Assembly (NCBI GenBank): GCA_963169855.1
Contig: CAUJCN010000002.1
Span: 775,608 to 817,811 of the forward strand
From: Patescibacteria group bacterium
Lineage (GTDB): Bacteria > Patescibacteriota > Dojkabacteria > J137
Direction: 5' to 3'
Length of the DNA: 42,204 nucleotides
The translations under genes and the position numbers were made by a program. The notes below the pieces were generated by a model that was not told the origin of the DNA, did not search any database, and saw only the letters and a list, made by a program, of their open reading frames with translations. Shown here one piece after another: positions 1 to 23,964 of this stretch; positions within the stretch are counted from its first letter, which is position 1, and the number at the start of each line of letters is the position of its first letter.

Positions 1-3000
1 AGTAGCTAGAGTTAATAACTCTGTTGCGTGAGTGTTTACAACATCGCCTAGATCAGCTAGAGAAACGTTTTGTGAATCTACTGTTAACCCAATGGTTTCA
101 AGAATAACTTCGTTGTCATCTACTTTAGTATTAAGTTCCTGAACAGCCTTCATTGTTAGTGGTAATAATCTAGTTGTAGAAATGCTGTAGTATCCAGTGT
201 CTTCTAGATATACAGCTGAAGGGAAAGCTTCAAGCAAGTTTTGTGCAATAAATCCTGTTTGTAAATCTCCCGCTGTCTCTACCTTGCCTTCTGATTCAAT
301 TCTTCTGAAATCAGAAATTACTATACCCATTAATGATTGTAGGCCTTCTATTGTTGTAGGAGCAATGTCTGTTTTTAATCTTTCGTCTGAAGTTCCTCCA
401 AATTCTAATGTTCCAGCATTAGATCTAATTGATTGAATTGCTGTTCCATCTCCGTCAACAATATCAATGAATCTACAAATACCGGTTGTAGAACAGTTGT
501 CCGAGTTTGCTTGTATTCGAATACCTCTTGCGTCGTCTGAGTTACCATCCACCTCTATTCTTAATCCAAATTGCCTAGTTCCTGCAGGGGCATTTCTAAA
601 TACTGATACTTGTGAAGTAGCATCGTGAACTGTATTAATTGCTAAACTACCTCCTGATGCTCTAGATGTAGCTATAGAGGCTCTTAAATTACCATTATCC
701 TGAGTAACATAAAGGTATTTGCCATTAGGTGTCATAGCAATGAATCTCTGGTTTACAGTGTCTTGAAAATTATCACCTGCTGCAGTCCAAGTAACTCCAT
801 GATCAAATGACATGAAGGAATCGTTACCTGCGATACCTGTTCTAAATGTAGCGAACTGTATTCTTCCATCGGATGTCATTGCAGTATCACTCCACTGTCT
901 TGCCGATTCCCTTGCAGTCCAAGTAACTCCATAATCAGAGGAAGTATATATATTTCCACCTTCGACAGCAGCGGTCATATACTGACCATTTGACGAAACA
1001 ACCATGCCCTCGGACCAGTTTCTATTAGCATCCCTAGCAGTCCAGGTAACTCCATAATCTGAAGAGACATATATCTGACCTCCAAATGCTACTGCAGCCT
1101 GATGTTTACCATCTGAGGACATTCCAGCTCCATTCCAAAGCCTTGAAGATTCTCTTTGTGTCCAAGTAACTCCGTAATCGGATGAAGTATAAATGAATCC
1201 AGGTGTACCATTCCCTACAACTGCGGTAATGTATCTACCATCTGCTGAAATTGCGGACTCATCCCAAGTTCGAGCCGCCTCCCTCGCAACCCATGTTACT
1301 CCATAATCAGAAGATACCTGTAGTTGAGATCCCGCAGCAGTAGCAATCTGGTACTTTCCAATGGCAGATACTTCAACAGAAGTCCAAGAAAGAGCACCAC
1401 CTCTCAAGTTCCATGTAAGTCCAAAGTCAGAAGATTCGCGAATCTGTTCTCCCCCCTCAACGACTGAAACATATCTACCATTAGAAGACATACCTATGCC
1501 TGTAGGCGCGGATAGCAAGCCGTGGTTGGATCTTGAGAACCAAGCTGTACTAAAAGAACTCTCATCTATTTCGAAAGAATCCTGTTGAACAATATTTGAT
1601 CCATAAAGTGCTCCACCATCGGTCTGAACTACAAGATTGTTATTTATAGATGCATCGTTGAATACATCTAGGGATCTTCCTGGAGTATCATACTGAACTC
1701 CAACATTTCCAGCGTTATCGATTATGAAAGGTGTAGTATCGGCTGCCACATCATTTACTCGCATGCTTGTTCCTATTCCTTGATTCTCTATAAACAAGGC
1801 TCTAGCTGCGGAAGCTGGACCAGAGATTATAAGTTCTAGTAAATCTCCTGTATTAGCAGCATTGTTTCCTGTAAGTGCGATTCTGTGTAAATCACCAGTA
1901 AATGCTGTAGACGTACTAGTTATATCGAATCCTCTTCCACTTGTTAATGAGTTAGCTACTTGAGTATATCCAGTTGTTGTTGTACCAGGGAAGGTTTGAG
2001 TTATCGCTCCCACAGCGTCTATTGCTAACCTTGTTGTTCCACTTGTTTCAAAAGCTAATCCAAATGCATCGTTTGTTCCTAAAACTGCACCTGCTCCAAA
2101 AGTGTTTCCGTTCTGGTAGAAACACGCACTAATTGCACAGTTAGCAAGTAAATCGATGTTGACAGTTGCAGTTCTAAAGTTTAAGTTAGTACCATTCCAC
2201 CATAAATCGCCACTGTTAGGTGCTGCTGGGTTAACACCTGCACTACTCACGATTCTGAGTGACGATTGTGCTGCAGTTGCCGCTTGAATGCTTAAAAGTG
2301 CAGTAGGGTTGTTTAATCCGATACCTATTCTATCTGTACTTGCATCTACAAAGAAAAGGTTAGCTTCTGTATCTCCTTCTATTCTTAGGTCGTCATCTTC
2401 TCCTGCTTCGTTGAATACTAATGATCCTACTCCTGCTGTGTCGAACGAAATATCGTAATCATCTGCTGATGTTCCAATATTTAATGTGGCTGGTCCTAAG
2501 TATAAGTCTCTAAATCTGTTTGTAGTTGAACCTAGGTCATAAGTATCATCCACATTTGGTGTTAAGTGACCTGAAGTATCTAATGTTAATCTTGTTGTTC
2601 CATCTGTCTCAAATGCAAGTCCAAAAGTATCGTTTGTTCCCAGAACTGCTAAGGCTCCGAATGAATCTCCGTTTTGATGGAAACATGTTGTACATGCTCC
2701 TCCCGCTAACAAGTCATGTGTAGTCGTACCGTCGTCAAAGTATAAGTTAGTACCATTGAACCATAAGTCACCAGCATTAGGAGCAGATACATCTACAGCG
2801 GCACTAGGACTAAGATTTAGTTGTGCAGTTGTAGTTGTATTCGCTCCGATATCTAACCAAGAAGCACTGTTAGCAGCTGTTCCGATTCCAGTAGTACCAC
2901 TTACTGTTAGGTCTTGATTTACAGTTACATCTCCAGCATTACTTATAGCTACTTGAGTTGCTCCATTAGTTTCGAAGTTGAAACCAAAGTTATCGTTTGT

Positions 3001-6000
3001 TCCGATCGTCATAGCTCCACCAAAAGTATTTCCCCCTTGAAGAATTACATTTGATAGGTCAACTCCATTGATTAAGCCAGAACAATCTAAGTCTCCAGTA
3101 GTTGCATCAATAGTACAACCAGTTGAAGCGTCTCCTCCACCTAAGTTGATAGTATTTGATGCTCCTCCAATATTTACTGTAGTAGCGTTAGTGTTGAATA
3201 TGTTCGCTGTTGCGTTTGTTGTTGTAATGTCTCCTCCGTTTACTGCTAGATCTCCTCCAAAAGTTGCATTATTAGTACAGCTAAAGTTACCTGCTGTTCC
3301 ATCTACTGTACAACCAGTTGAAGCATCTCCACCCATTAAGTTCATAGTTCCTGAAGCACCTGCGATGCCTAAGTTAATTGTTGTAGCAGCTCCGAATCCA
3401 TTGATTACTGTAGCTCCTGTATTTACTAAGTTGAAAGTACCTGCTGTTGTTGTTAAGTCTCCACCGTTTATTGCTAAGTCATTATTCAATGTTAAGTTTC
3501 CTGCTGTAGATAATGTTGCATGAGTTGTTCCGTTTGTTTCTAAAGATAAACTGAAGTTGTCGTTTGTACCCAAAACTGCGTTAGCACCAAAAGTGTTTCC
3601 GTTTTGAATATATGCTTGTGATAAATCAACTCCGTTAATTAATCCAGAACAATCTAAGTCTCCAGTTGTTCCATCAATTGTACAACCAGTAGAAGCTGAG
3701 CCACCCATTAAGTTCATTGTTCCAGATGCACCTGCTATTCCTAAGTTAACTGTTGTTGCTGCTCCAAATCCATTTACTGTTGTTGCATTTGTATTAATTA
3801 AGTTGAATGTGGCTGCTGATGTAATTAAATCTCCTCCATTTACATTCACATCCCCTCCGAATGTTCCGTTTCCAGTACAATCAATACTTCCTGTTGTTGT
3901 ATCCATTGTACAACCAGTAGATCCAGATCCACCTCCGAAGTTTATTATATTAGAAGCTCCTCCAATGTTTACTGTTGTTGCGTTAGTTTGGAATAAGTTT
4001 GCAGTTGCGTTTGTTGTTGTAATGTCTCCGCCGTTTACTGCTAGGTCGTTATTGATAGTTACATCTCCACCTGTACCAATCGACATGTGAGTAACATTGT
4101 TAGTCTCGAAGTTTAATACAAAGTTGTCGTTAGATCCTAATATAACTGGTCCTCCAAAAGTGTTTCCACCATTCACTAGTACGTTTGTTAGGTCTACTCC
4201 ATTGATTAAGCCAGAACAATCTAAGTCTCCAGTAGTTGCATCAATAGTACAACCAGTTGAAGCGTCTCCTCCACCTAAGTTGATAGTATTTGATGCTCCA
4301 CCAATATTTACTGTAGTAGCGTTAGTGTTGAATATGTTCGCTGTTGCGTTTGTTGTTGTAATGTCTCCTCCGTTTACTGCTAGATCTCCTCCAAAAGTTG
4401 CGTTATTAGTACAACTAAAGTTTCCAGCTGTTCCATCTACTGTACAACCAGTTGAAGCATCTCCACCCATTAAGTTCATAGTTCCAGAAGCTCCAGCAAT
4501 TCCTAGGTTAACAGTTGTAGCAGCTCCGAATCCGTTGATTGATGTAGCTCCTGCATTTACTAAGTTGAAAGTACCTGCTGTTGTAATTAAATCTCCTCCA
4601 TTTACGTTTACATCTCCACCAAATGTTCCATTTCCAGAACAGTCTATGCTTCCTGTTGTTGTATCCATTGTACAACCTGTAGATCCGGATCCTCCTCCGA
4701 AGTTTATTGTGTTTGCAGCATCGCCCATGTTTATGGTTGTTGCATTTGTTGTGAATAGATTTGCAGTTGCATTAGTTGTTGTAATATCACCTCCGTTTAC
4801 TGCTAAATCGTTGTTGATAGTTACATCACCTGCATTACTAATGGACATTTGTGTAACATTATTAGTTTCGAAGTTTAAAGCAAAGTTATCGTTAGATCCG
4901 AAAGTTACTGGTCCACCAAAAGTATTTCCTCCATTTAGAAGAACATCAGTAAGATCTACACCGTTAAATAGGCCAGTACAATCAATATTTCCTGAACCAT
5001 CGATAGTACAACCAGTTGACCCTACACCACCCGCTAAGTTTAGGGTAGTTGTTGCGCCAAATGCGTTTACAGTGGTAGCGTTAGTATTTAATAGGTTGAA
5101 TGTGGCTGCTGTAGTTGTCAGATCACCTCCATTTACGGCTAAGTCGTTGTTAAATGTAAAGTCTCCTGCTGTCGATAATGTTGCATGAGTTGTTCCATTA
5201 GTTTCAAATGACAAAGAGAAGTTGTCGTTAGTTCCTAATACTGCGTTAGCTGAAAATGAGTTTCCTCCTTGTTCAAAGAAATCCCCTGATGCTCCACCCA
5301 CGATGTTTCCAGTACATGTAAAGTCTCCCGTTACACCGTTAATAGTACAACCAGTATCAGCGGAACCTCCCATTAAGTTCATGGTTCCAGTTGCTCCAGT
5401 TCTACCAACATTAAATGTTGTAGCACCAGCAGATGTAAACACGTTTACAGTAGCAGATGTTGAAGAAATATCTCCACCATTTACTGCGAGATCGTTCGTC
5501 AGAATTAAATCTCCAGAAGTACCGTCAAATGTTGCTCTAACTAATGCATCAGTTATAAAGGTTAAATCGGTATCATTGCTTGTAGCTATTAAAGCTGAAT
5601 CCATTTCTTGGAAAGCCAAAACTCCCAAGTACTGATTTGCAAAACCGAAAGTAGTACCTACTCCACTAACTCCATAAGATTGAAGTCGAGAAGATGCACT
5701 TGAAGTTGAATAATCAGAGCTTTGTAGTTCAATTGTAGCTTGATCTACTTGTGCCGCGTTACCCATTACATCAATGTTAGCTCCCCCGTCTCCGCCGTAA
5801 ACATATAATCTACTGTTGTTTCCAATTCCTCCAAAATTCGTGTCTGTTCCCAAGAGAACATCTCCATCGTTTTCTATTCGTAAAGCAGTTTGGCTAGTTG
5901 TTTGACTGAAAAGATCAAAAGAAGATGATCCAGGTCCTAAAGCACCCACTCTCAATTGCCACTCTTGTGTTCCAAGTTGTGTATTTCGCAAAGCCATTAA

Positions 6001-7380
6001 AGGTCTTGCTCCCTCGACTGTTACACCTTTTCTATGAATAACGAAAGTTCTTGTTGTTACATTCGCAGTAAAGGCTGGAGTAACTGTAAAGTTAGTTCCT
6101 GTTCCACCTACTGTAACTACTCTAGATTGAGTCGATTGTAAGTTAGGAACAATATAGTCTCCCACGTTAAGTGTTATTACCGCATCAGTTGTGAATGTTG
6201 AGTTTCCGTTTACAGCAGTCATTGTAGTAGCACCACTTGTAGAACCTGATCCACCAGTTACGATATGTACTTGAGACGTAGCTGTTGTTGTTGCAACCCC
6301 CAAAGTCCCATCGGCTCCTAATCTCATCTTCTCTGCTCCATTGGTTTCGAAGGCTAGACTAAAGTTATCGTTAGTACCAAGTACTGCTAATGCTCCAAAA
6401 GAATCTCCACCATCGTGGAAACAAGTTATACACGGAGATCCTGCTAATAGGTCAAATGTTGTTGTACCATCATCGAAATAAAGGTTGCTTCCATTAAACC
6501 AAAGGTCTCCAGCGTTAGGAGCTGCTACATCCACTGCAGCACTTGGTGTGAGATTTAGTTGTGCAGCTGTTGTCGTGTTCGCCCCTATATCTAACCAGGC
6601 TGCTGTTGTAGCACCAGCACCAATTCCTGTAAATCCTCCGTTAGCTACTTGGAAAACCGTGGTTGATGTATTTTGTAATCTTAATAAATCTGGAGTTCCT
6701 GCTCCGTTTTCGTTGATATTTAATAGAGGGTTAGCTGTGTTAGCTGTAGTTTCAAGGTTTATAAGAGTATTAGCACTTGTAGTTGTTTGAACAGCTCCAG
6801 GTCTAAATTGTACAAAGTCTGCGGAAGTTAAATTATCTAAGTAAGAAGCTGATACAGCATATCTAGCAGAAGCTACATCTCTAATTTCTACTCTACTGAA
6901 TGTCTCGGAGAATGTACTCGTTCCTGTTGGATCGAATTCTATTTCTATCCAAAGATCTGTTGCTGAGAAGTCTACTCCTCCGTTACTTATACAAGGGTCT
7001 GCATTGTCTGTCCAATTACCATCTGTTCCAGTATCACTTACTACGTTACATATACTATTGATTTCTAGATTGAATATTCCGTTGTATCGACCAATCTCTG
7101 TATTTATGTGATCTTCTGAGAAAAGAAGATTTCCTGCTGTTGGATCATCATAGATATTTACTCTAAAGTCGCAAGTGTCATTACTGTTTCCTGCTACTAC
7201 GCAAGCTGGTGATCCTGTGTCGATGTTTGTTCCATCTACTAGGTTTACTATTTTACTTTGGAAGTTTAGGGTATTTGATGATGCTGAAACGGAGCTACTC
7301 GTGGCGGTGGAGAAAAGTACGCCAATAGAAATAGCTATACTGAATACAAGTGATCTTTTTAAAAATAGTTTTATTTTCAT
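1..7380 (-). CDS. Giant secreted tail-fibre-like adhesin with Asp-box propeller and peptidase S74 intramolecular chaperone (partial, >2460 aa, 3' end outside window)
   Basis: Manual translation from ATG 7380 (MKIKLFLKRSLVFSIAISIGVLFSTATSSSVSA, Sec-signal-like). No in-frame stop was found down to base 1 (most of the ORF read codon by codon, the internal repeats partly by similarity to their copies). Contains T/G/N-rich repeats, the PNVDDTYDLGSTTNRFRDLYL fibre motif, six SxDxGxTW boxes and SDERLKTDI...GFIAQ...KAVQEL. Absent from the ORF track because its stop lies outside the window. Confidence 0.93.
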   Translation of the reverse strand, partial: MKIKLFLKRSLVFSIAISIGVLFSTATSSSVSASSNTLNFQSKIVNLVDGTNIDTGSPACVVAGNSNDTCDFRVNIYDDPTAGNLLFSEDHINTEIGRYNGIFNLEINSICNVVSDTGTDGNWTDNADPCISNGGVDFSATDLWIEIEFDPTGTSTFSETFSRVEIRDVASARYAVSASYLDNLTSADFVQFRPGAVQTTTSANTLINLETTANTANPLLNINENGAGTPDLLRLQNTSTTVFQVANGGFTGIGAGATTAAWLDIGANTTTAAQLNLTPSAAVDVAAPNAGDLWFNGSNLYFDDGTTTFDLLAGSPCITCFHDGGDSFGALAVLGTNDNFSLAFETNGAEKMRLGADGTLGVATTTATSQVHIVTGGSGSTSGATTMTAVNGNSTFTTDAVITLNVGDYIVPNLQSTQSRVVTVGGTGTNFTVTPAFTANVTTRTFVIHRKGVTVEGARPLMALRNTQLGTQEWQLRVGALGPGSSSFDLFSQTTSQTALRIENDGDVLLGTDTNFGGIGNNSRLYVYGGDGGANIDVMGNAAQVDQATIELQSSDYSTSSASSRLQSYGVSGVGTTFGFANQYLGVLAFQEMDSALIATSNDTDLTFITDALVRATFDGTSGDLILTNDLAVNGGDISSTSATVNVFTSAGATTFNVGRTGATGTMNLMGGSADTGCTINGVTGDFTCTGNIVGGASGDFFEQGGNSFSANAVLGTNDNFSLSFETNGTTHATLSTAGDFTFNNDLAVNGGDLTTTAATFNLLNTNATTVNAFGATTTLNLAGGVGSTGCTIDGSGNIDCTGLFNGVDLTDVLLNGGNTFGGPVTFGSNDNFALNFETNNVTQMSISNAGDVTINNDLAVNGGDITTTNATANLFTTNATTINMGDAANTINFGGGSGSTGCTMDTTTGSIDCSGNGTFGGDVNVNGGDLITTAGTFNLVNAGATSINGFGAATTVNLGIAGASGTMNLMGGDASTGCTVDGTAGNFSCTNNATFGGDLAVNGGDITTTNATANIFNTNATTVNIGGASNTINLGGGDASTGCTIDATTGDLDCSGLINGVDLTNVLVNGGNTFGGPVILGSNDNFVLNFETNNVTHMSIGTGGDVTINNDLAVNGGDITTTNATANLFQTNATTVNIGGASNIINFGGGSGSTGCTMDTTTGSIDCTGNGTFGGDVNVNGGDLITSAATFNLINTNATTVNGFGAATTVNLGIAGASGTMNLMGGSASTGCTIDGTTGDLDCSGLINGVDLSQAYIQNGNTFGANAVLGTNDNFSLSLETNGTTHATLSTAGNLTLNNDLAINGGDLTTTAGTFNLVNTGATVINGFGAATTINLGIAGASGTMNLMGGDASTGCTVDGTAGNFSCTNNATFGGDLAVNGGDITTTNATANIFNTNATTVNIGGASNTINLGGGDASTGCTIDATTGDLDCSGLINGVDLSNVILQGGNTFGGAMTIGTNDNFGFNFETNGATQVAISNAGDVTVNQDLTVSGTTGIGTAANSASWLDIGANTTTTAQLNLSPSAAVDVSAPNAGDLWFNGTNLYFDDGTTTHDLLAGGACTTCFHQNGDSFGALAVLGTNDTFGLAFETDGTTRLTLDTSGHLTPNVDDTYDLGSTTNRFRDLYLGPATLNIGTSADDYDISFDTAGVGSLVFNEAGEDDDLRIEGDTEANLFFVDASTDRIGIGLNNPTALLSIQAATAAQSSLRIVSSAGVNPAAPNSGDLWWNGTNLNFRTATVNIDLLANCAISACFYQNGNTFGAGAVLGTNDAFGLAFETSGTTRLAIDAVGAITQTFPGTTTTGYTQVANSLTSGRGFDITSTSTAFTGDLHRIALTGNNAANTGDLLELIISGPASAARALFIENQGIGTSMRVNDVAADTTPFIIDNAGNVGVQYDTPGRSLDVFNDASINNNLVVQTDGGALYGSNIVQQDSFEIDESSFSTAWFSRSNHGLLSAPTGIGMSSNGRYVSVVEGGEQIRESSDFGLTWNLRGGALSWTSVEVSAIGKYQIATAAGSQLQVSSDYGVTWVAREAARTWDESAISADGRYITAVVGNGTPGFIYTSSDYGVTWTQRESSRLWNGAGMSSDGKHQAAVAFGGQIYVSSDYGVTWTARDANRNWSEGMVVSSNGQYMTAAVEGGNIYTSSDYGVTWTARESARQWSDTAMTSDGRIQFATFRTGIAGNDSFMSFDHGVTWTAAGDNFQDTVNQRFIAMTPNGKYLYVTQDNGNLRASIATSRASGGSLAINTVHDATSQVSVFRNAPAGTRQFGLRIEVDGNSDDARGIRIQANSDNCSTTGICRFIDIVDGDGTAIQSIRSNAGTLEFGGTSDERLKTDIAPTTIEGLQSLMGIVISDFRRIESEGKVETAGDLQTGFIAQNLLEAFPSAVYLEDTGYYSISTTRLLPLTMKAVQELNTKVDDNEVILETIGLTVDSQNVSLADLGDVVNTHATELLTLAT
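130..390 (-). other. Peptidase S74 / intramolecular chaperone autoprocessing (ICA) domain within the giant protein
   Basis: TSDERLKTDIAPTTIEGLQSLMGIVISDFRR...TGFIAQNLLEAFPSAV...YYSISTTRLLPLTMKAVQEL; the Ser (388-390) and Lys of the dyad are present. Confidence 0.9.
787..1434 (-). repeat. Six Asp-box (BNR) repeats, probable beta-propeller
   Basis: SSDFGLTW, four SSDYGVTW and SFDHGVTW, spaced about 40-43 aa apart. Confidence 0.9.
2040..6610 (-). repeat. Internal coding repeats of the giant protein
   Basis: Eight GN/DxFG..(L)G(T/S)ND.F.L.FET units and nine GCT(I/V/M)(D/N)-C disulfide-like units. DNA direct repeats include about 3062-3450 vs 4196-4585 (offset 1134 nt) and the module near 2849 vs 6587 (offset 3738 nt). 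Confidence 0.9.
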
Positions 7381-7530
7381 GCTGTGCAGGCGTTTAAAAT
7401 ATTAAGTCCATCATACCTATTCGGTGTAATGTCCTATTGTTTTGTACAAGTGGCTAATATGTATTCAATCATATTTAAAAATTGATGTCAACATTTTCTA
7501 ATAAAAATATTATATTAGTCAAAAATTATT

Positions 7531-7578
7531 GAAAAGAAAAGGCTGCAGATTCAATTTCAAAAATGAACCTACAGCCTT
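7531..7578 (-). terminator. Intrinsic terminator after gyrA
   Basis: Minus strand AAGGCTGTAGGTTCA-loop-TGAATCTGCAGCCTT (with G-U pairs) followed by TTCTTTTC. Confidence 0.75.
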
Positions 7579-7595
7579 AATTAATTGCTTAGTGA

Positions 7596-10211
7596 TTAAA
7601 CTATAGCTACAGCAGCAACCTTATCTCCATCCTTAACTCTGATTAAAATAACTCCAGTGGTTTGTCTATTTCTTAATGGTAAGTTGTTCGTAGGAATCTT
7701 AATTCCTTGACCCTTTGTACTTAAGATTAACAGTTCTCTTTGAGGGTGGTCTAGGATTCTGGCTACAACTAGTTTTCCAGTTTTGCTGTTCACCTTAGCT
7801 GCGAAAATACCAGAACCTCCTCTATTCTGCACTGTAAATTGTTTTAGCTCGGTCATCTTACCGAAACCATTTTCCGATACAGTAAGCATAAATACTTCTT
7901 CGTTTCTAACAATATCCATAGAGATTACTTCATCATCTTCTTTTAGCCTAATTCCCCTTACTCCTTGGGATGATCGGCCTGTTTCTCTAACATCTTCTTC
8001 TTTGAAGTGAATAGATTTTGCTTCTTTAGAAACTAGAATTACAGTATCTTCCCCAGTTGTTGGTTTTACCCAAATTAATTCATCGTTATCTGTTAATGAG
8101 ATAGCTATCAATCCGTTAGATCTGATATTTTCGTATTCAGTAAGAGCTGTCTTTTTAATAGTTCCTTTCTTTGTAGCCATTAAAAGGAATTTATAGTCTT
8201 TTCCAAAGTTTTCTTTCTTAGCTTCACCTTCTTGAATTTCTTCTTCATCTAGAATATGACCTCCAGCGCTTCTTGTTAGAACGCTTGTTACGAGTTCGTT
8301 ATTAGAGATGTTGATTAAATTAACAACAGGTAATCCCTTAGCTGTACGCTGATATTCTGGAACTTCGTGTACTTTTAACGCATAAACTTTCCCCAAATTT
8401 GTGAAGAACAAGATTTCGTCATGAGTCTTGCAGTTGAATACGTGTCTGATGGAATCATCTTCCTTAGTAGTAACGGCAATCTTTCCTGTTCCACCTCTAT
8501 GTTGAACTGTATATGAGTCACCTTTGATTCTTTTTATGTATCCTTGAGTGCTGATCATTACGAATGCATCTTCGTTAGGAACTAAGTCCTCTTCGCTGAA
8601 TTCATCTACGTCTCCTTTGAATACTTTTGTTCTTCTTTCATCACCGAATTTATCGCTAATTTCACCAAGTCCTGTCTTAATAATTGTTAAGATAGCTTCA
8701 GGGGAACCTAAGATTTCGATAATTTCTTTTACTTTCTTCTTAATTTCTTTATATTCATTTTCGATCTTTTCTCTTTCAAGAGCAGCAAGTTTTCTTAACT
8801 GCATATCTAGGATAGCCTGAGCTTGAATTTCTGAAAGCTTAAACTTCTTCATTAAAGCTTCTTTAGCAACTTCTGCATCTGCAGATTTTCTAATTGTTGC
8901 AATAACTTCGTCTAGATTGTCTAATGCAATCATTAAGCCTTCTAAAATATGTTCTCTTTCTTTTGCTTTTCCTAATTCGTGTTCATGCTTTCTTATTACG
9001 ATTTCTTGTCTGTGAGTAATGAATAATTCAAGATATTCTCTTAAAGCAATCAACTTGGGTTCTCCATTAACCAATGCAAGCATATTTGCGTTGAATGATT
9101 TTTGAAGTTCAGTGTATTTATAAAGCTGATTTTCTACAGTCTTAGGTTTTGCTTCTTTCTTGAGTTCGACAACGATTCTAATTCCTTCTCGGTTAGATTC
9201 GTCTCTTAAGTCAGAGATTCCTTCAATTTTTTTATCTTTATAAAGTTGAGCAATCTTAGTTAATAACATTGATTTGTTCACTTGATATGGAAGTTCAGTA
9301 ATGATAATTCTGAACTTTCCTCCTTTCATTTCTTCGATCTCTGAAACGGCTCTCATTACAATTCCGCCTCTACCAGTTTCGTAAACAGCTTGGATATTCT
9401 TTTGGTTGAACATGTGTGCACCGGTAGGAAAATCTGGTCCTTTAATATCCTTCATTAATTCGCTAATAGCTATATCAGAAGAGAACTTATGGAATCTTGC
9501 TTTAGGTAACTTTTCGATATCAGCAACATTAAGGATGTCTTTTGAATAATCAATTTTTAGCTTTTTTATTTCATCGAAACTCCATAGGTTTCCATTGTCG
9601 ATAGTTCGGATAGTAGCATTAATTACCTCTTTCAAGTTGTGTGGAGGGATCTTAGTAGCCATACCAACAGCAATACCCTCTCCTCCATTTATCAGCAGAT
9701 TAGGAATAGCTGTAGGAAGAATAACAGGTTCTGTTTCGTTTCCATCGTAGTTTGGAACGTAATTAACTGTGTTCTCTACTCCCTCAAGCATTTTTGCTCC
9801 AAGTTTGGAAAGTCTAGCTTCGATGTATCTGGCAGCAGCTGCAGGGTCTCCGTCTATAGATCCGTAGTTTCCTTGTCCTTCAACAAGAACGTATCTCATA
9901 TTGAATTCCTGAGCCATTCTTACTAACGCATCGTTGATAGATGCATCTCCGTGAGGGTGGTATTTACCCATGGTATCTCCAGAAATTCTAGCTACTTTTT
10001 TGTATGCAGAACCTGGCATAACACCCATCTTATACATTGAGTAAAGGATTCTTCTGTGTACAGGTTTTAGACCATCCCTAACATCAGGTAACGCTCTAGC
10101 CACAATAACGCTCATGGCGTAACTGATGTAGCTTTGTTTAAGCTCTGTTACGATATCCTGATCGATAATATTTGGATTTGATTCTTTGATTTCTATTTCT
10201 TCGTTTTCCAT
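7596..10211 (-). CDS. gyrA: DNA gyrase subunit A
   Basis: RALPDVRDGLKPVHRR, HPHGD and AAARYIEARL catalytic Tyr; GyrA-box QHRGGTG; pinwheel C-terminal domain. Confidence 0.98.
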   Translation of the reverse strand: MENEEIEIKESNPNIIDQDIVTELKQSYISYAMSVIVARALPDVRDGLKPVHRRILYSMYKMGVMPGSAYKKVARISGDTMGKYHPHGDASINDALVRMAQEFNMRYVLVEGQGNYGSIDGDPAAAARYIEARLSKLGAKMLEGVENTVNYVPNYDGNETEPVILPTAIPNLLINGGEGIAVGMATKIPPHNLKEVINATIRTIDNGNLWSFDEIKKLKIDYSKDILNVADIEKLPKARFHKFSSDIAISELMKDIKGPDFPTGAHMFNQKNIQAVYETGRGGIVMRAVSEIEEMKGGKFRIIITELPYQVNKSMLLTKIAQLYKDKKIEGISDLRDESNREGIRIVVELKKEAKPKTVENQLYKYTELQKSFNANMLALVNGEPKLIALREYLELFITHRQEIVIRKHEHELGKAKEREHILEGLMIALDNLDEVIATIRKSADAEVAKEALMKKFKLSEIQAQAILDMQLRKLAALEREKIENEYKEIKKKVKEIIEILGSPEAILTIIKTGLGEISDKFGDERRTKVFKGDVDEFSEEDLVPNEDAFVMISTQGYIKRIKGDSYTVQHRGGTGKIAVTTKEDDSIRHVFNCKTHDEILFFTNLGKVYALKVHEVPEYQRTAKGLPVVNLINISNNELVTSVLTRSAGGHILDEEEIQEGEAKKENFGKDYKFLLMATKKGTIKKTALTEYENIRSNGLIAISLTDNDELIWVKPTTGEDTVILVSKEAKSIHFKEEDVRETGRSSQGVRGIRLKEDDEVISMDIVRNEEVFMLTVSENGFGKMTELKQFTVQNRGGSGIFAAKVNSKTGKLVVARILDHPQRELLILSTKGQGIKIPTNNLPLRNRQTTGVILIRVKDGDKVAAVAIV

Positions 10212-10222: not shown

Positions 10223-12172
<1,950 letters not shown>

Positions 12173-16282: not shown

Positions 16283-18061
16283 ATGGATCAGGCGCTGAAT
16301 AACAAAAGCATAAGAGGTTTAAGCTCTCTTCTTGACGCCCTTTTGGTAAAGAATCTGATCACTCAAGAAGATTATAACCTTATAAAGCTGGAATCTGTAA
16401 ATAAATCTGTTCCTGCTGATCAGATAGTAAAAGAAAAAGCTATTGTAACTTCGGATGATATTGCGAAGCTCTATTCAGAGATGAAAGGCATCGGGTTTAT
16501 CGATTTATCTTCTATCGGAATTAACATTGAAACTCTTCATAAACTAGAAAAAGATGCTGCAAAAAATTCGATGGCTATTGTTTTCGAAGAACTGCCAAAC
16601 AAATTCAAAGTAGCAATGAGAGACCCTTTGGATCTTCAGAGAATAAAATATTTAGAAGCAATTCTGGGTAAAAAATTAGAAGTTTACTATGCTTCAGAAG
16701 ACGATATAAATACAATTATCGAATCTAAATACGGAGCACAGATTACTAAAGATGTAGACGAGGCTCTAGAACAAGTAGGAGGAGATAAATTACTTGATAT
16801 TAATGCGGTACAAGAAAACGAGATTACAAGTGATCCTCAGAATGCTCCGATAATTAGAATAGTAAATATGATTCTAGATTATGGAATAAAAAACAAAGCT
16901 TCGGACATCCACATTGAATCTCGAGAAAAAAAAGTAAACGTTAGATTCAGAATAAGAGGAATTTTGAGTGAAAAACTTACCATTCCAAAGAAACTTTTAC
17001 CTGCAGTTGTGTCTAGAATTAAGATTCTTTCTAATTTAAAAATTGATGAACACAGAGTTCCCCAAGACGGTAGATTTCAAGTTAAATTAGGTGAGGTAAT
17101 TGTTGATATCAGAGTTTCGATAATGCCAAATATCTACGGAGAAAAAATCGTAATGAGACTTCTTTCTAAAACTGAAAGTGTTTTGAAAATCGAAGAACTA
17201 GGCATGAGGGGAATAAACTACTCTAGAATGACAGAAGCATTGAAAAAAACTCAAGGAATTATAATCGTTAGTGGTCCTACAGGAAGTGGTAAAACTCAGA
17301 CATTAGCTAGTTCTTTAAAAATTCTGAATACTCCAGAAGTTAATATTATGACTCTGGAAGATCCGGTAGAAATTAGAATAGATGGAATTACTCAAGTTCA
17401 AGTTAATCCAGAAGTTGGATTAACTTTCGCGTCCGGATTAAGATCTTTTCTTAGACAAGATCCAGATGTAATCATGGTTGGAGAAGTTAGAGACTCCGAA
17501 ACTGCTGCTCTGGCTGTGCAATCAGCATTGGTGGGACGTTTGGTTTTGACAACATTGCACACAAATAGTGCATCAGGATCCTTCATCAGATTACTAGATA
17601 TGGGAATAGAGCCATTCTTACTCTCTTCTACAATCGATTTAATTCTTGCCCAAAGACTTGTTAGAGTTTTATGCGACAATTGTAAAGAAGCTCATGAAGC
17701 TGCCCCTGAGCAAATGAAAGAACTTCACGAAGAGTTAGATATTCTAAATTCATTTGATATTTTCAATCCCGACCATACTGTAAAAGCACATTTTGATAGA
17801 AGTACAGAAAAAGTTACTCTATATAAACCAAAGGGTTGTCCAAAGTGTAATGATACTGGATATATTAGTAGAACAGGAATTTTCGAAGCGTTAAAAATGA
17901 GCGAGACAATCGCAAGAGCTGTGATTCAGAAACAGACAATCAAAGAAATCCAAGATCTTGCAATTTCAGAGGGAATGATTACAATGGTTCAAGACGGGTA
18001 CATAAAAGCTTTAGAAGGAATTACAACTTTAGAAGAAGTTATTAGAGTAAAGAATGAATAG
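16283..18061 (+). CDS. pilB: Type IV pilus assembly ATPase (PilB/GspE family)
   Basis: ASDIHIE, PQDGR, Walker A GPTGSGKT, LRQDPDVIMVGEVRD, CxxC...CxxC zinc motif. Confidence 0.95.
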   Translation: MDQALNNKSIRGLSSLLDALLVKNLITQEDYNLIKLESVNKSVPADQIVKEKAIVTSDDIAKLYSEMKGIGFIDLSSIGINIETLHKLEKDAAKNSMAIVFEELPNKFKVAMRDPLDLQRIKYLEAILGKKLEVYYASEDDINTIIESKYGAQITKDVDEALEQVGGDKLLDINAVQENEITSDPQNAPIIRIVNMILDYGIKNKASDIHIESREKKVNVRFRIRGILSEKLTIPKKLLPAVVSRIKILSNLKIDEHRVPQDGRFQVKLGEVIVDIRVSIMPNIYGEKIVMRLLSKTESVLKIEELGMRGINYSRMTEALKKTQGIIIVSGPTGSGKTQTLASSLKILNTPEVNIMTLEDPVEIRIDGITQVQVNPEVGLTFASGLRSFLRQDPDVIMVGEVRDSETAALAVQSALVGRLVLTTLHTNSASGSFIRLLDMGIEPFLLSSTIDLILAQRLVRVLCDNCKEAHEAAPEQMKELHEELDILNSFDIFNPDHTVKAHFDRSTEKVTLYKPKGCPKCNDTGYISRTGIFEALKMSETIARAVIQKQTIKEIQDLAISEGMITMVQDGYIKALEGITTLEEVIRVKNE

Positions 18062-19196
18062 TCAAAATCAGCAAACAAACGAAGAAATAAAAGTATACTC
18101 TGCTCCACAGTCTAATTCGCAGGTAGAACCAGAACAAAAGACTTTAACACTTGAAGACATGCTACTTCTTGGAATTCAAACTCAGGCTTCTGATGTTCAT
18201 ATCACTTCGAACTATAAGCCAACTTTAAGAATAAACGGAAATCTTCAAGCTTTAAAATACAGAGATCTTTATCCTGATGAAGTTTTTAATTTCGCAAAAC
18301 AAATTCTTGCGAGTAAAAAAGATATAAATTTTGATGACTTCTATCAAGCTGATACAACATACGTTGTAAATGGCAGAAGGTTTAGAATTAATGTCTTCAA
18401 ACAATCTGGAACTTATTCAATTGCAGCTAGAGTTATTTCTGAAAGTATTCCTCAATTAGAAGTTTTAGGATTACCTCCAATTGTAAAAGATTTTGCCAAA
18501 TTCCCAAATGGTTTAGTTTTGCTAACAGGTCCAACAGGAAGCGGAAAATCCACAACTATCGCTTCTCTAATCAATCTAGTTAATATTACAGAATCTAAAC
18601 ACGTTATCACTTTAGAAGATCCGATTGAATATATTTTCCCAAAAGGACAATCTTTAATTGAACAAAGAGAATATCAAAGTGACTTTGATACTTGGCCAAA
18701 CGGGTTGAAAGCAATCTTAAGACAAGATCCAAATATTGTTCTATTAGGAGAAATGAGAGATTCCGATACTATCGAATCAGCTATTAGAATTGCAGAAACA
18801 GGACACCTAGTATTCGCTACTCTACACACTAATAGTGCTGCTCAGAGTATAGACAGAATTGTGGATATTTTCCCTGGGGAAAAACAAGATCAAATTAAAG
18901 TACAATTAGCTTCTGTTTTACAAGCAATCGTTTCTCAGAAATTAGTAAGAACAATACAAGGAAGTCGAAAATTAGCAACAGAAATACTTATTGCTAACTC
19001 TGCAGTAAGAAATACAGTTAGAGAAAGTAAAGGATATCAGTTAGATAACATTATTCAAACAAGCAACGATTTAGGAATGCAAAGTTTAGAAAAATCTTTG
19101 GTAAACTTAGTAAAGCAAGGTCATATTACAATCGATACTGCAAAAAGCAACGCTAATAGACCAGCAGATATTGATTCGTTATTAAATAGAGTCTAA
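18054..19196 (+). CDS. pilT: Type IV pilus retraction ATPase
   Basis: ASDVHI, GPTGSGKSTT, TLEDPIE, AETGHLVFATLHTNSA, AVRNTVRE (AIRNLIRE-like). Confidence 0.93.
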   Translation: MNSQNQQTNEEIKVYSAPQSNSQVEPEQKTLTLEDMLLLGIQTQASDVHITSNYKPTLRINGNLQALKYRDLYPDEVFNFAKQILASKKDINFDDFYQADTTYVVNGRRFRINVFKQSGTYSIAARVISESIPQLEVLGLPPIVKDFAKFPNGLVLLTGPTGSGKSTTIASLINLVNITESKHVITLEDPIEYIFPKGQSLIEQREYQSDFDTWPNGLKAILRQDPNIVLLGEMRDSDTIESAIRIAETGHLVFATLHTNSAAQSIDRIVDIFPGEKQDQIKVQLASVLQAIVSQKLVRTIQGSRKLATEILIANSAVRNTVRESKGYQLDNIIQTSNDLGMQSLEKSLVNLVKQGHITIDTAKSNANRPADIDSLLNRV

Positions 19197-20428
19197 TGGC
19201 AGAATTCAGATACATAGCATTAACAAGTTCAGGTCAGACTGTAGAAGGTACAAAGTCTGGAGATTCTGAGCAGGAGATAATCGAATATCTAAAGTCGACA
19301 AATCTTAATCCAGTTTTAGTTGAAGAAAAACTTTCCTTCAATATAAATAAAGCATTGAATGTAGAAATCGGTGGAATTTCTCTTAACGAAAAAGTTATTT
19401 TCACCAAACAACTTTCTACTATGATTGGCGCTGGAATTCCAATCGTTCAGGCATTGGATATTCTTGTTCAACAAACAGAAAAACAATCAATTAAAGATAA
19501 GTTTGTGAGGGTTTATAAATCTGTAGAGGCAGGAATGAGTTTGTCTGAAGCATTCAGAAAAGAAACGGGACTGTTGAATGAAATTCAAATTAATCTGATG
19601 TCTGCTGGAGAAAAAAGTGGAAATCTTACAGAAATGATGCAAAAAATTTCGGAAGATTTAGCTAAATCAAAAAATCTAAGAGGAAAAATTACAGGGGCAC
19701 TAATCTACCCTGCAATCATTTTCGTTGTTATGGGTGGAGTTTTGTTTGTAATGATTACATTCATGGTTCCTCAAGTAAAAGAACTGTACTCTTCGTTGGG
19801 TCAGGATGAATTACCATTCATAACTCAAATGCTAGTGAATATTGGAGAAAACTTAGGAAAAGTAGAGACGATTTTAATACTTGCTACGTTAGCTGTGACA
19901 GGGTTTTTGGGTTATAGGTATTACTACTCTACTCCTGGAGGAAGGATCAGAATTGATAGTATTAAATTGAGAATTCCAATTTTCGGAAATCTTACAAGAA
20001 AAGTTGAGGTTGCTGAATTCTGTAGAATAATGTCTATGCTTTTAGCTAGTGGAATTCCGGTTATAGAAGCAATGGAAATTACAGGAAGAGCAATGCAGAA
20101 TGGTGTTTTCCAAAATATTATTTTGAAAGCTAAAGACGAAATTACTGTTGGAAACTCTATGTCTATCAGCATTGCAAAATATAATACTAAAAATGGATTT
20201 CCGCCAATTCTTTTGAGAATGCTTGCTACTGCAGAAGAATCAGGAAAAGTTGGATTCGTTCTTGATGATCTTTCTGCTTTCTATCAAGAAGAAGTTGATC
20301 AGATAGCAGGTAATTTATCAAAACTTGTAGAACCAATAATCCTTGTGATTGTTGGAATTATGGTAGGTTTCCTAGCTGTTGCAATTTATCTTCCAATCTA
20401 TCAAGTTGGTCAAATTGTGGGACAGTAA
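19196..20428 (+). CDS. pilC: Type IV pilus platform protein (PilC/GspF)
   Basis: FTKQLSTMIGAGIPI, GEKSGNL, ALIYPA, LVEPIILV, AIYLPIY. Confidence 0.95.
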   Translation: MAEFRYIALTSSGQTVEGTKSGDSEQEIIEYLKSTNLNPVLVEEKLSFNINKALNVEIGGISLNEKVIFTKQLSTMIGAGIPIVQALDILVQQTEKQSIKDKFVRVYKSVEAGMSLSEAFRKETGLLNEIQINLMSAGEKSGNLTEMMQKISEDLAKSKNLRGKITGALIYPAIIFVVMGGVLFVMITFMVPQVKELYSSLGQDELPFITQMLVNIGENLGKVETILILATLAVTGFLGYRYYYSTPGGRIRIDSIKLRIPIFGNLTRKVEVAEFCRIMSMLLASGIPVIEAMEITGRAMQNGVFQNIILKAKDEITVGNSMSISIAKYNTKNGFPPILLRMLATAEESGKVGFVLDDLSAFYQEEVDQIAGNLSKLVEPIILVIVGIMVGFLAVAIYLPIYQVGQIVGQ

Positions 20429-20533
20429 CATCATTATCCCCCACTCTCTAGAGTCCTTACCTGCTTATTTTCAGAGGAGAAATTCGGATCTTATTGTGTT
20501 GCTAATGACACATCTTAAACCTCCTTCATCCTA

Positions 20534-20562
20534 TTGCACTTTGTTCTCCATACTATTAAACT
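20534..20562 (+). promoter_or_regulatory. sigma70-type promoter upstream of the first pilin
   Basis: TTGCAC-N17-TAAACT in the only large intergenic gap of the pilus cluster. Confidence 0.6.
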
Positions 20563-20596
20563 GAAATAGATATCTTATTTTTTATTTAATCAGTTT

Positions 20597-21055
20597 ATGC
20601 ATAAAAAGAAAAATGCATTTACGCTAATAGAATTGATGGTTGCTATGGGAATCATCGGTGTATTAGTTACTCTTTCTCTTTTGGGAATCACTATTGTTCA
20701 AAGATCACTTAGAGATACTCAAAGAAGAGATAGTGTTAACGCTGTTAGACTAGCTGTCGAAGGTCATTACACAAACAACTCAGTTTACCCAGACATTGAA
20801 ATCCAAGTTGGAGGAAATGCTATGTTAGTAGGCAATGAGGAAGTTGAGCTTAATGGACCTGGGAAAGCTTGTCCATCAGGAACATCCGTAGCAGATGCAC
20901 AGAGCGACTCAAGTTGTTCTATCTATTGTTACGACACAGACGGTAATACTTACTCGTTAGGAGTTATGGTAGAAGGAGGTACAATTACTCAAGTAGGAAA
21001 CTCTGGAGATGATTGTAGCTTAACTACACCTAATGATAGAGTTCCATACGAATAA
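20597..21055 (+). CDS. Type IV pilin, candidate major pilin
   Basis: KKKNA|FTLIELMVAMGII class III signal; four Cys in the C-terminal half; has its own promoter. Confidence 0.9.
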   Translation: MHKKKNAFTLIELMVAMGIIGVLVTLSLLGITIVQRSLRDTQRRDSVNAVRLAVEGHYTNNSVYPDIEIQVGGNAMLVGNEEVELNGPGKACPSGTSVADAQSDSSCSIYCYDTDGNTYSLGVMVEGGTITQVGNSGDDCSLTTPNDRVPYE

Positions 21056-21056
21056 G

Positions 21057-21536
21057 ATGAAAAAAGGTTTCACCTTAATTGAAATCTTAATATTCATGGG
21101 AATAGCAGCAGTTTTACTGCTGCTATCTTTCCAGGGAATTCAAATTCTACAAAGAAATAGTAGAGATACCGAAAGAAAAAATCTTGGAGGTGAGATCGAT
21201 ACTATGTTAAATAAATATAAAAGAGATAATCTAAGATTCCCAGCAAATACGAATGTAAGTTTTCAGCAAAACCGGTTCACAATAACAGGTCTTTCTGAAA
21301 GTTTAGAATTGGATGGATTTTTAGGTTCAAGTGAACTGTCCAATTCAGGAAGTACACATTACCTTTACAACTATATTAGTTCTTCGGAATATCAGCTCTG
21401 CGTTCAATTAGAAAGCGGATCATATGAAGAGTATGGAACGATTCCTTGTCCTACTCCTCCTCAACAACTAACAGGAGAATCGGTTAAAGATTTAGAGACC
21501 GGAACCGGAGGCAGAGGTCCAGTATCTCCAGTTTAA
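21057..21536 (+). CDS. Type IV pilin
   Basis: MKKG|FTLIEILIFMG; CVQLE...C D-region. Start placed at 21057; the track gives 21033. Confidence 0.9.
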   Translation: MKKGFTLIEILIFMGIAAVLLLLSFQGIQILQRNSRDTERKNLGGEIDTMLNKYKRDNLRFPANTNVSFQQNRFTITGLSESLELDGFLGSSELSNSGSTHYLYNYISSSEYQLCVQLESGSYEEYGTIPCPTPPQQLTGESVKDLETGTGGRGPVSPV

Positions 21537-21546
21537 AAATAATTAT

Positions 21547-22275
21547 ATGACAGCATTAGTAATTTCGATAATTGGAGGTTTTATAACATTGATATTCTCC
21601 TCTATTCTTTCGTCTTTTATAAACGAAGAAAAGTTCTCTTTTAAAACAACGATGAATTTGAAAGAAGTACTTGGAGGATTCGTTTTCTTTTTATCTGGAG
21701 CAATTTTCGTTGGCCATTTATTCAGTTTGAATCTAGGAGGTGCTTTGTGGATGTATTTAGCAATTTTCGCTAGCGTCTTTGTTGGGCTTATCTATCTAAC
21801 AATTTGGGATCTTCACACACTTTCCATTCCAGAAAGATTTACGAATTTATTTTTGCTTTTTGTAGTTCTTATCAATTTTGTAATTGGTCTAGCTAATTAT
21901 ATGGAGTTTAATTCAGTTGGTGAATTAAGTTTAGGAAGTCTATACATTGGAACTGTTGGAAATATCTTCGCAGGTCTTGGATTAGCAGCGTTAATTTACC
22001 TTTTACACAAATTTACAAAAGGCAAAGGAATTGGAGATGGAGATATCTATATTTATGGATTAATCGGTTTTATTTTTGGAATTCCTTTGTCTTTAGGATT
22101 TATTATCATTTCTTCTCTTGTTGGAGGATTAATCGCAGCTGTTTTAATTTTAGCTTATTGGAAAGATAGACAGAAAATTCTTAAAACTAGAATTCCTCTG
22201 ATGCCAATAATCTTGATTGCATTTGTATTTACTCTACTCGTTCAAAATCAGCTTTATTCAATTTTTACTATATGA
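21547..22275 (+). CDS. pilD: Prepilin peptidase (A24 family)
   Basis: Multi-TM protein with both catalytic Asp motifs (IWDLH, GIGDGDI) and C-terminal RIPLMP; lies within the pilin cluster. Confidence 0.85.
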   Translation: MTALVISIIGGFITLIFSSILSSFINEEKFSFKTTMNLKEVLGGFVFFLSGAIFVGHLFSLNLGGALWMYLAIFASVFVGLIYLTIWDLHTLSIPERFTNLFLLFVVLINFVIGLANYMEFNSVGELSLGSLYIGTVGNIFAGLGLAALIYLLHKFTKGKGIGDGDIYIYGLIGFIFGIPLSLGFIIISSLVGGLIAAVLILAYWKDRQKILKTRIPLMPIILIAFVFTLLVQNQLYSIFTI

Positions 22276-22784
22276 AAGCATTCACTTTGATAGAACTGAT
22301 GGTTGTTTTTGGAATTATTGCTTTAACTTTAGGCCTAAGTATTTTTGGTTTGACTAGATTTAGAGCAAGCGTAGAACTTAATACTGCTTATACAAATGTA
22401 ATTTCTTTAATTAATAATACTCGGAACAAAGCTACAAATGCTTTCGGTGGAAGTTCTGGGGGTTCTTTACAAATTCGAGACTTGTTTGGCGTAGATTTTC
22501 AATCTCAGCAAGTGAATTCAATAGTGTGTACAGCAAATACAGATGCGACAGTATATAGTTGTCAAAACACGGCTGATAGTCCTATTTCGCTTAACAACAT
22601 GACAATTAACGTTGTTGGTTGCGATACACGGTTCGGATTTAAGAGACTTACTCAAGATTTGATTAGTCTAACAAATGTAAACACTGTTGTTGCTTCTGGA
22701 ATTTGTAGTGTAGAGATTAGACATTCATTTACAAATGAAGTCAAAACTATTACCATAAATTTAGTCGAAAACTCTTATAAATAA
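22272..22784 (+). CDS. Minor pilin
   Basis: MKA|FTLIELMVVFGII. Confidence 0.88.
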   Translation: MKAFTLIELMVVFGIIALTLGLSIFGLTRFRASVELNTAYTNVISLINNTRNKATNAFGGSSGGSLQIRDLFGVDFQSQQVNSIVCTANTDATVYSCQNTADSPISLNNMTINVVGCDTRFGFKRLTQDLISLTNVNTVVASGICSVEIRHSFTNEVKTITINLVENSYK

Positions 22785-23485: not shown

Positions 23486-23487
23486 AT

Positions 23488-23964
23488 ATGAAAAAACTCA
23501 AAGGATATTCGTTAGTAGAAGTTGTAGTAACCCTGGGAATAATAGGGATTCTTATTATTATGCTTTTTAATGTGATTCTATTAGCACTAAGATCAAATAC
23601 AAAAATAGCAGGTAGAAGTTTCATTAGAGAGCAAATGTCTGCAGTACTAACGCAGTTATCCAGAGAAGTCAGGAATTCAACAACCCTTCTTGATTGTTTT
23701 GAAGGAAGTTGCGAAATGACCTTAACTGGCAAGACTATTAGATGGGAGGCTTGTGCTTCTAGCATTTGTAGATTAGAAAATGGGGTGCTAACACTTCAGA
23801 CCTCTGATACAATGCAAGTAGAGGAATTTTCTTTTGATTCTTATACAGGATCAAATAATAACGATGTGGTTCTTGTAACAATTATTGCAGGACATTCTAA
23901 TCAGGCTTTAGAAATTCAGAATTTAGTCACTCAGATATCAGCTTCAACCAGAAATTATGAATAA
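23488..23964 (+). CDS. Minor pilin (PilW/GspJ-like)
   Basis: KLKG|YSLVEVVVTLGIIGIL. Confidence 0.85.
   Translation: MKKLKGYSLVEVVVTLGIIGILIIMLFNVILLALRSNTKIAGRSFIREQMSAVLTQLSREVRNSTTLLDCFEGSCEMTLTGKTIRWEACASSICRLENGVLTLQTSDTMQVEEFSFDSYTGSNNNDVVLVTIIAGHSNQALEIQNLVTQISASTRNYE

Follow-up and report, generated by a model that had tools for sequence, protein, structure and literature searches.

The closest described counterparts of the protein analyzed here are the MAT fibres of Bdellovibrio, which consist of a signal peptide, a conserved ~130-aa beta-rich N-terminal domain without a homologue in the PDB, a trimeric fibre and a variable tip, with or without an S74 domain that carries the catalytic motif SDxxxK (PMC10769870). 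MATs outside Bdellovibrio have been tabulated for Oligoflexia, PVC, Micavibrio, FCB and Omnitrophica; Patescibacteria are not included in that table (PMC10769870). For bacteria of the candidate phyla radiation (CPR), type IV pili and unnamed "adhesins" have been mentioned as means of finding and holding a host, the adhesins in generic terms only (PMC11665869, PMC10633639), and in the literature collection searched we found no paper that ties S74 fibres to Patescibacteria. Here we analyzed a 42,204-nucleotide stretch of a Patescibacteria genome (the window; C2:775608-817811, where C2 is contig CAUJCN010000002.1), one end of which lies within a gene for a giant S74 protein. It is likely that this gene encodes a functional, MAT-like surface fibre that would be exported by Sec, assembled and self-cleaved by its S74 domain, and provided with a beta-propeller as its specificity element.

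The fibre gene, uninterrupted from its ATG through 2,460 codons, occupies positions 1..7380 of the window on the reverse strand and extends beyond the window edge. The frame closes at a stop codon 392 nt ahead of window position 1; C2:775215-775607 holds this stop and the final 130 codons, and the complete protein has 2,590 aa (C2:775215-782987) and a precursor mass of 265 kDa. The exact protein is held in a public protein collection. Its 30 cysteines all belong to close pairs (15 in total), as would suit an extracellular protein. An ortholog was found in a metagenome-assembled genome (MAG) of the same genus, CAZYSE01 (G002). Over the part of the fibre that lies in the window, the ortholog has the same frame and is 85–96% identical, and the ratio of nonsynonymous to synonymous substitution rates (dN/dS) is 0.02–0.24, or 0.02–0.10 outside the propeller (Nei-Gojobori estimates, this genome versus G002, as for all dN and dS values below). 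The gene is thus intact and under purifying selection. The genome comprises 1,062,966 bp in two contigs (C2 is 818 kb), and among named records those nearest to it carry the labels Candidatus Saccharibacteria or Dojkabacteria/WS6, in agreement with the CPR-like cell proposed in an earlier note on this stretch. G+C content is 0.38–0.41 across the fibre gene (window 1-8000) and 0.33–0.37 in most of 8001-42204; the higher value could reflect a composition rich in Gly, Thr, Ala and Asn, foreign origin, or both. The fibre protein and the sequence preceding its gene are organized as follows (window coordinates):

7381..7595, reverse strand: spacer between gyrA and the fibre gene, 215 nt, the left edge of the inserted cassette
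7276..7380, reverse strand: Sec-type signal peptide, aa 1-35, recognized by inspection (K/R n-region, 14-residue h-region, VSA/SS)
6781..7275, reverse strand: N-terminal beta-rich domain, 165 aa (36-200), from the conserved family alignment and an AlphaFold2 (AF2) model
6151..6798, reverse strand: module A, copy 1, aa 195-410, from internal comparison; holds the unit that matches Bd3182
2971..5583, reverse strand: repeat shaft, aa ~600-1470, with nested duplications and Cys-x10-Cys loops
1981..3030, reverse strand: module A, copies 2 and 3, aa 1451-1800, from internal comparison
631..1569, reverse strand: propeller, aa ~1938-2250, from Asp-boxes, Pfam BNR_6 and AF2 fold; hypervariable cassette
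391..630, reverse strand: neck, aa 2251-2330, linking the propeller to the cleavage site, with the Cys2296/Cys2302 pair
208..390, reverse strand: Peptidase_S74 chaperone core, aa 2331-2391 (PF13884; the S74 domain spans 2331-~2440)
1..207, reverse strand: start of the extended chaperone tail, aa 2392-2460 (AF2)
mostly beyond the window, reverse strand: coiled coil, aa ~2441-2520 (AF2 long helix, pLDDT ~80)
beyond the window, reverse strand: H-type-lectin-like beta-sandwich, aa 2520-2590 (AF2, pLDDT above 90)

The S74 module is complete. Pfam Peptidase_S74 (PF13884) matched aa 2331-2391 over the whole profile (positions 1-58) with an E-value of 5.9e-10 and 39.7 bits, above the curated cut-off of 22, and a six-frame search of the genome recovered the same domain at 46.9 bits. 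The catalytic dyad is Ser2331/Lys2336 within S2331-D-E-R-L-K2336, with the serine codon at window 388-390 and the lysine codon at 373-375, and GFIAQ follows at aa 2376. The earlier note had named an intact autochaperone with SDERLK...GFIAQ and had placed this serine codon at exactly 388-390. The region SDERLK..GFIAQ..AVQEL could be aligned with the phage tail fibre 8JOV (E 5e-6; SDERLK identical), and the S74 core also matched tail fibres of Pelagibacter and Synechococcus phages. Cleavage at Ser2331 would split the protein into a fibre chain of 234 kDa and a fragment of 28 kDa, and the neck, which is 96% identical to that of the ortholog, would become the new C-terminus. The fibre is a candidate for trimer-dependent autocleavage and release of the chaperone. 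The beta-sandwich at the end of the released fragment gave below-cut-off matches to Pfam H_lectin, both here (E 0.059) and in a paralog (E 0.0029).

Immediately before the neck, six SxDxGxTW Asp-boxes (aa 1983-2191) and Pfam BNR_6/BNR repeat matches mark the propeller. In an AF2 model of aa 1900-2590 the propeller had pLDDT above 90, and its best PDB folds were Ycf48 (5OJP/2XBG, TM 0.70–0.73), followed by GH74 and WD40 proteins. The propeller claimed in the earlier note therefore exists, and the model predicts it to be seven-bladed and Ycf48-like. A six-bladed propeller of the sialidase or endosialidase type (GH58/GH33) was rejected, as no sialidase occurred among the top 50 PDB folds and Pfam matched only BNR repeats. 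Nothing in an NCBIfam scan rose above its cut-off; a BNR glycosylhydrolase family gave a weak match (E 7e-7, 28.8 bits versus a cut-off of 175). Phage proteins with similar propellers are present in BFVD.

Comparison with G002 showed that the propeller is the one block that has diverged between the two species. Amino-acid identity of the fibre is 94–100% outside aa ~1938-2250 and 44–76% within this region (overall 58%), and the breaks at ~1938 and ~2250 coincide with domain edges. Since it is the sole diverged block and its borders are domain borders, we regard the propeller as the candidate specificity element. The propellers of the two genomes are each other's closest relatives. Synonymous divergence followed the same division. 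Along the fibre, dS was 0.64 for aa 1-190, 0.42 for aa 191-600, 0.25 for aa 601-950, 0.22 for aa 1411-1900, 1.42 for the propeller (dN 0.33, dN/dS 0.24), 0.21 for the neck and 0.14 from S74 to the end; it was 0.30 for the adjacent S8 protease gene (described below), 1.35 for gyrA, 1.23 for gyrB, 2.0 for ruvB, and saturated for a neighboring fn3-like gene. Thus, the cassette formed by the fibre and protease genes has dS of 0.14–0.64 outside the propeller, against a background of 1.2–2.0, so that most of it is far younger than the species split. Such low values point to recent exchange or homogenization. The propeller itself is as old as the species split, with amino-acid change at about five times the rate of housekeeping genes. 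Because its dS is at background and that of the remainder is far below, the divergence pattern is best described as recombinational mosaicism; on the same grounds, positive selection in situ was not supported as the sole cause of propeller divergence. By analogy, divergence confined to the propeller resembles the behavior of receptor-binding modules and the "tip swapping" of MATs. Variation driven by a diversity-generating retroelement was also considered and rejected: when the entire genome was searched by blastn with the propeller DNA, only the propeller's own blade repeats and no template were found.

At the other end of the protein, the leader reads MKIKLFLKR, followed by 14 hydrophobic residues and ..VSA/SS, and in all family members the conserved N-domain begins right behind the leader. 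The motifs LNFQSKIV (aa 38), FRVNIYDD (aa 72) and GIFNLEI (aa 101) lie within aa 38-107 of this domain. A search of 1.84 billion proteins for the N-domain returned 202 cluster representatives, in nearly all of which it is found at residues ~35-200 of proteins 800–4,000 aa long; their alignment (A2) has invariant C25/C35 in addition to G, N, D, E, F and R columns. The AF2 model of the domain is beta-rich (pTM 0.72), and neither profile search nor fold search revealed a relative in the PDB. The named members of the family come from Candidatus Dojkabacteria/candidate division WS6, and automatic annotation calls some of them "hemagglutinin-like" or "T4-like proximal tail fiber". Of 115 long proteins with the N-domain, 29 also carry S74. 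In a set of 41 related genomes, 23 have the N-domain and 13 have S74, nearly always within open reading frames (ORFs) of more than 1,000 aa. A search with the N-terminal part gave 15 hits, all unnamed or CPR, with no link to Bdellovibrio. The N-domain is presumed to be the cell-proximal anchor. In the same-genus MAG, three N-domain fibre genes are found in tandem (CAZYSE010000007.1 10001-24042; 1,191 aa, 3,026 aa and a third that is truncated where the contig stops), and these are 71–90% identical in parts to the fibre under study.

Between the two ends, the protein is built largely of nested internal repeats. Module A (aa 195-410) recurs at aa 1451-1606 (75% identity) and at aa 1686-1800, and its first copy holds the GTNDNFSLAFETNG..VHIV unit that matches the Bdellovibrio MAT Bd3182. 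Residues 335-382 matched crystallized Bd3182 (PDB 8OJN/8ONB/8ONC) with an E-value of 2e-4, and a profile of eight GTNDxFxLxFETN units did so with 8.9e-7 over crystal residues 2-61 (Bd3182 ~632-690). The comparison with Bdellovibrio S74 fibres, which the earlier note had drawn, has therefore gained sequence support. Internal copies of the shaft are up to 98% identical as protein, whereas over 570 nt their DNA identity does not exceed 87.7%, and because of the latter value the repeats are not an assembly artefact. The shaft also matched PHROG 4527 "short tail fiber" (E 1e-25) and is 44% identical to the tail fibre that Synechococcus phage BUCT-ZZ01 encodes. Four of 50,697 phage genomes matched, each over no more than 15% of the protein and in the shaft or S74 region; the N-domain and the propeller found no match in this set, and a search of IMG/VR gave one weak locus. 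Some MAGs labelled Pseudomonadales or Gammaproteobacteria encode module-A-like fibre repeats at 30–51% identity (L027, L031, L033), and the shaft module is therefore not restricted to CPR. In another MAG of 799 kb (OY970318.1, 1-26110) there are four consecutive giant genes (2,113, 2,184, 2,136 and 1,975 aa), two of which have SDxxxK/S74-like ends; a ParA-like ATPase gene is next to them.

The genome encodes five S74 proteins, including the fibre described above, which together account for 3.1% of its length. All S74 copies keep the Ser..Lys spacing. The other four are:

C2:668270-673021, forward strand: paralog of 1,583 aa whose leader is the same and whose N-domain is 85% identical (77% over aa 1-200, leader included)
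C1:74048-78703: S74 fibre paralog of 1,551 aa
C1:86986-97584: S74 paralog of 3,532 aa with 13 YadA_head repeats
C1:99820-105102: S74 fibre paralog of 1,760 aa

In the 1,583-aa paralog S74 occurs twice, each copy complete (SSARYK at aa 1129 and at aa 1370); a short fibre module lies between the two, and a coiled coil and a lectin-like end follow the second. The C-terminal cassette of S74, coiled coil and sandwich is common to the paralogs. In the fibres of contig C1 it is combined with an N-terminal transmembrane helix that looks uncleaved, and on the basis of these N-terminal anchors we infer that the N-terminus of the fibre under study is cell-proximal and its C-terminus distal. The C1 genes form a giant-fibre island (C1:74048-109214; 1,551, 3,532, 1,760 and 1,304 aa), three members of which have S74; a putative fourth S74 at C1:105300-109214 was discarded, as its "SDIETK" is a chance motif without an S74 domain. 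No phage genes were found around the paralogs, and the neighbors on C1 are PFOR, flavodoxin, VIT and TrmB genes.

Considered as a whole, the protein is closest in kind to the MAT fibres of Bdellovibrio bacteriovorus with S74, such as Bd3182 (Caulton et al. 2024). The layout of leader, conserved beta-rich N-domain, long fibre, variable tip and C-terminal S74 with SDxxxK is equivalent in the two, although the two N-domains may or may not be related (no PDB homologue was found here, and none is reported for that of MATs); the repeat units are similar in sequence; and both belong to multi-copy families with S74 and non-S74 members and mosaic tips. The CPR fibre differs in being 2.5 times longer (2,590 versus ~1,000 aa), in having a propeller ahead of S74, in a released fragment that is lengthened by a coiled coil and a lectin-like sandwich, in sharing a mobile two-gene cassette with an S8 protease, and in its bearer, a Patescibacterium, with the named members of its N-domain family in Dojkabacteria/WS6. 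Phage tailspikes and fibres (K1F endosialidase, the L-shaped T5 fibre pb1, 8JOV) share the S74 core with its Ser-Lys dyad and GFIAQ helix region, and the shaft repeats have matches in PHROG 4527 and in a tail fibre of a cyanophage. Unlike these, the CPR fibre has a Sec leader, lacks a virion context and begins with a domain of a cellular family rather than a baseplate adaptor. Its domain order recalls the propeller, stalk and S74 of K1F endosialidase, whereas its propeller is Ycf48-like and not that of a sialidase. With trimeric autotransporter adhesins of the YadA family it has in common that it is long, repetitive and, as proposed here, trimeric; however, Pfam found no YadA head, stalk or beta-barrel anchor in the fibre under study, the trimerization of which would come from S74 and not from an outer-membrane anchor. 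A more distant parallel is MYRF, a eukaryotic membrane transcription factor with an S74/ICA domain. There too S74 precedes further domains and cleavage parts two functional halves; yet MYRF belongs to another kingdom, carries DNA-binding cargo, has a transmembrane helix after S74 and is not a fibre.

The fibre gene lies directly downstream of gyrB (10223-12145) and gyrA (7596-10211) on the same strand, as the earlier note had observed. This holds for position only, as the 215-nt spacer intervenes: just after the gyrA stop it contains a long imperfect hairpin and a T-run resembling a terminator, and TTGACA/TTGACT-type promoter-like hexamers precede the fibre ATG, with no clear Shine-Dalgarno sequence in the spacer. 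Because of the terminator-like hairpin and promoter-like hexamers, the fibre gene is probably not co-transcribed with gyrBA. On the other side, 22 nt past the fibre stop and on the same strand, is the gene for an S8 subtilase of 559 aa (C2:773513-775192, reverse strand) with its own signal peptide, followed by a 168-aa ORF on the same strand; beyond it are convergent genes for an fn3-like protein, RuvB, RuvA, YebC, LytR, DnaB and a release factor. The S8 protease is single-copy; its counterpart beside the ortholog is 95% identical, and S8 was found paired with no fibres other than these two. Its best NCBIfam similarities, far under the cut-offs, are to mycosin and PatA-type proteases. No pairing of a fibre with a hydrolase was found at other loci of the N-domain family. 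Within ±15 kb of the fibre gene there are no capsid, tail, baseplate, integrase or lysis genes; the flanks were read 15 kb past the window edge, and the neighbors on both sides are non-phage. Thus, the gene is chromosomal and outside any prophage, as had been proposed.

Fibre and S8 genes together form an accessory insertion between gyrA and the next gene. G002 has the ortholog at the same site, with one contig carrying hyp379, gyrB, gyrA and the N-terminal part of the fibre, and another the C-terminal part, S8, the fn3-like gene and ruvB. In a further genome of the same genus (G001, gyrA 88.7% identical), fibre, S8 and spacer are missing, the surrounding core synteny is kept, and the gyrA TAA overlaps the ATG of the 168-aa ORF (GTCTAATGAAAAAG). 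Spacer, fibre and S8, ~9.7 kb in all, are inserted between that TAA and ATG. A genome of another genus (G007) is also without fibre and S8 at this site. No target-site duplication or flanking direct repeats were seen at the insertion, and the G+C content of the cassette is 40% against ~35% around it. The TAATG overlap in G001 (C1:364001-384000 of that genome, around position 17312 of that stretch) suggests translational coupling of gyrA with the 168-aa ORF; here this coupling would be broken, because the cassette is inserted between the two.

A type IV pilus cluster is located in the window at 16283-27128, with PilB, PilT and PilC followed by ~ten small ORFs that probably encode pilins and assembly proteins. 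The earlier note had suggested that the fibre works with this cluster 9 kb away. This was not upheld: the same-genus genome keeps the core synteny and yet lacks fibre and S8, and since these are an accessory insertion into a conserved core region, their adjacency to the pilus genes is incidental. Overall, what the earlier note had observed was confirmed, and its interpretation was supported in part.

In the reading that we favor, the 265-kDa precursor would be exported through Sec and its leader removed. The C-terminal module (S74, coiled coil and lectin-like sandwich) would gather three chains and template folding from the C-terminal end, after which the Ser2331/Lys2336 dyad would cut between Thr2330 and Ser2331, freeing the 28-kDa fragment. 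The remaining fibre, 234 kDa per chain, would be held with its N-domain at the cell surface and with neck and propeller at the far end, where the propeller would most likely bind a surface molecule of another cell, probably a host. The 9.7-kb cassette of fibre and S8 would be exchanged between related species, and the propeller would be a mosaic block that evolves on its own. What we infer from the features described is export, anchoring by means of the N-domain, trimerization, cleavage and the ligand or host; surface display and host binding are likewise proposed, and the fibre is a good, if unproven, candidate for a device that recognizes other cells. Several points weigh against this scheme. 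The signal peptide was called by eye, the neck and S74 have pLDDT below 50 in the monomer AF2 model, and the folds matched by the propeller (Ycf48, GH74, WD40) give no hint of a ligand. In addition, the number of shaft repeats is known from one assembly, the ortholog being split over two contigs at the repeats.

The same features may be read in other ways. The protein might be a general adhesin or an envelope or biofilm fibre, serving attachment to abiotic surfaces, self-aggregation or an S-layer-like coat rather than host recognition. Nothing links the fibre to any host, giant surface proteins are common and numerous in CPR genomes (PMC13059738), and the N-domain family is widespread in the class (23 of 41 genomes). 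However, the fibre is accessory within one genus, and a single module that diverges at its domain borders while the rest stays near-identical is the pattern of receptor-binding proteins and not of a structural coat; we therefore consider a general adhesin unlikely. It is also conceivable that the protein is a secreted or displayed polysaccharide depolymerase whose propeller is catalytic, as in endosialidase tailspikes or GH74. The propeller-stalk-S74 order of K1F endosialidase, the GH74 xyloglucanases among the fold matches and the weak NCBIfam glycosylhydrolase match agree with such an enzyme, whereas the top folds are the non-catalytic Ycf48 and WD40, Pfam gives no sialidase or glycoside hydrolase match, the ~41-aa blades each carry an Asp-box like Ycf48/sortilin-type binders, and the propeller tolerates 42% amino-acid replacement between species. 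An enzymatic role is accordingly quite improbable.

The resemblance of S74 and shaft repeats to phage tail fibres, together with the automatic naming of public WS6 homologues as "T4-like proximal tail fiber", raises the question whether a gene of a phage, prophage, tailocin or extracellular contractile injection system sits in the chromosome by chance. A Sec leader and paired cysteines argue against this, as do a cassette made up of fibre and protease alone, the few and partial matches among phage records (4 of 50,697, each over no more than 15% of the protein) and the single weak IMG/VR locus. There are no phage structural, integrase or lysis genes within ±15 kb or near the paralogs, and a prophage origin was rejected from what lies in the 15 kb past the window edge and around the paralogs; a phage fibre is thus very unlikely. 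We hold it just as improbable that the gene is decaying or mis-assembled and has no function. It is highly repetitive, and the assembly of its ortholog breaks within the repeats; but the frame is open over 7.8 kb, dN/dS is 0.02–0.24 throughout, and the internal repeats, no more than 88% identical as DNA, can therefore be assembled, in a contig of 818 kb.

Type IV pili and unnamed adhesins apart, the means by which CPR/Patescibacteria find and hold a host are largely unexplained (PMC11665869, PMC10633639). The MAT-like fibre proposed here would be a concrete candidate, built on the well-understood assembly principle of S74 trimerization and self-cleavage, and the locus offers a delimited specificity module, natural alleles in two species and a relative with a naturally empty site. 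A bolder version, which we put forward tentatively and regard as rather unlikely, is that CPR epibionts trade the cassette horizontally as a host-range module: shaft, chaperone and S8 protease would pass from species to species together, the propeller would be swapped or retained with breaks exactly at its domain borders, and cleavage would yield two trimers. If this is true, the cassette is the cellular counterpart of the exchange of receptor-binding proteins among phages, with the propeller setting the host that is recognized, and each precursor gives rise to two extracellular trimers, an anchored fibre and a free 28-kDa coiled-coil, lectin-like one. The finding would extend MAT-type fibres, so far described in predators, to a phylum outside the published list (PMC10769870), where they appear to behave as exchangeable accessory cassettes.

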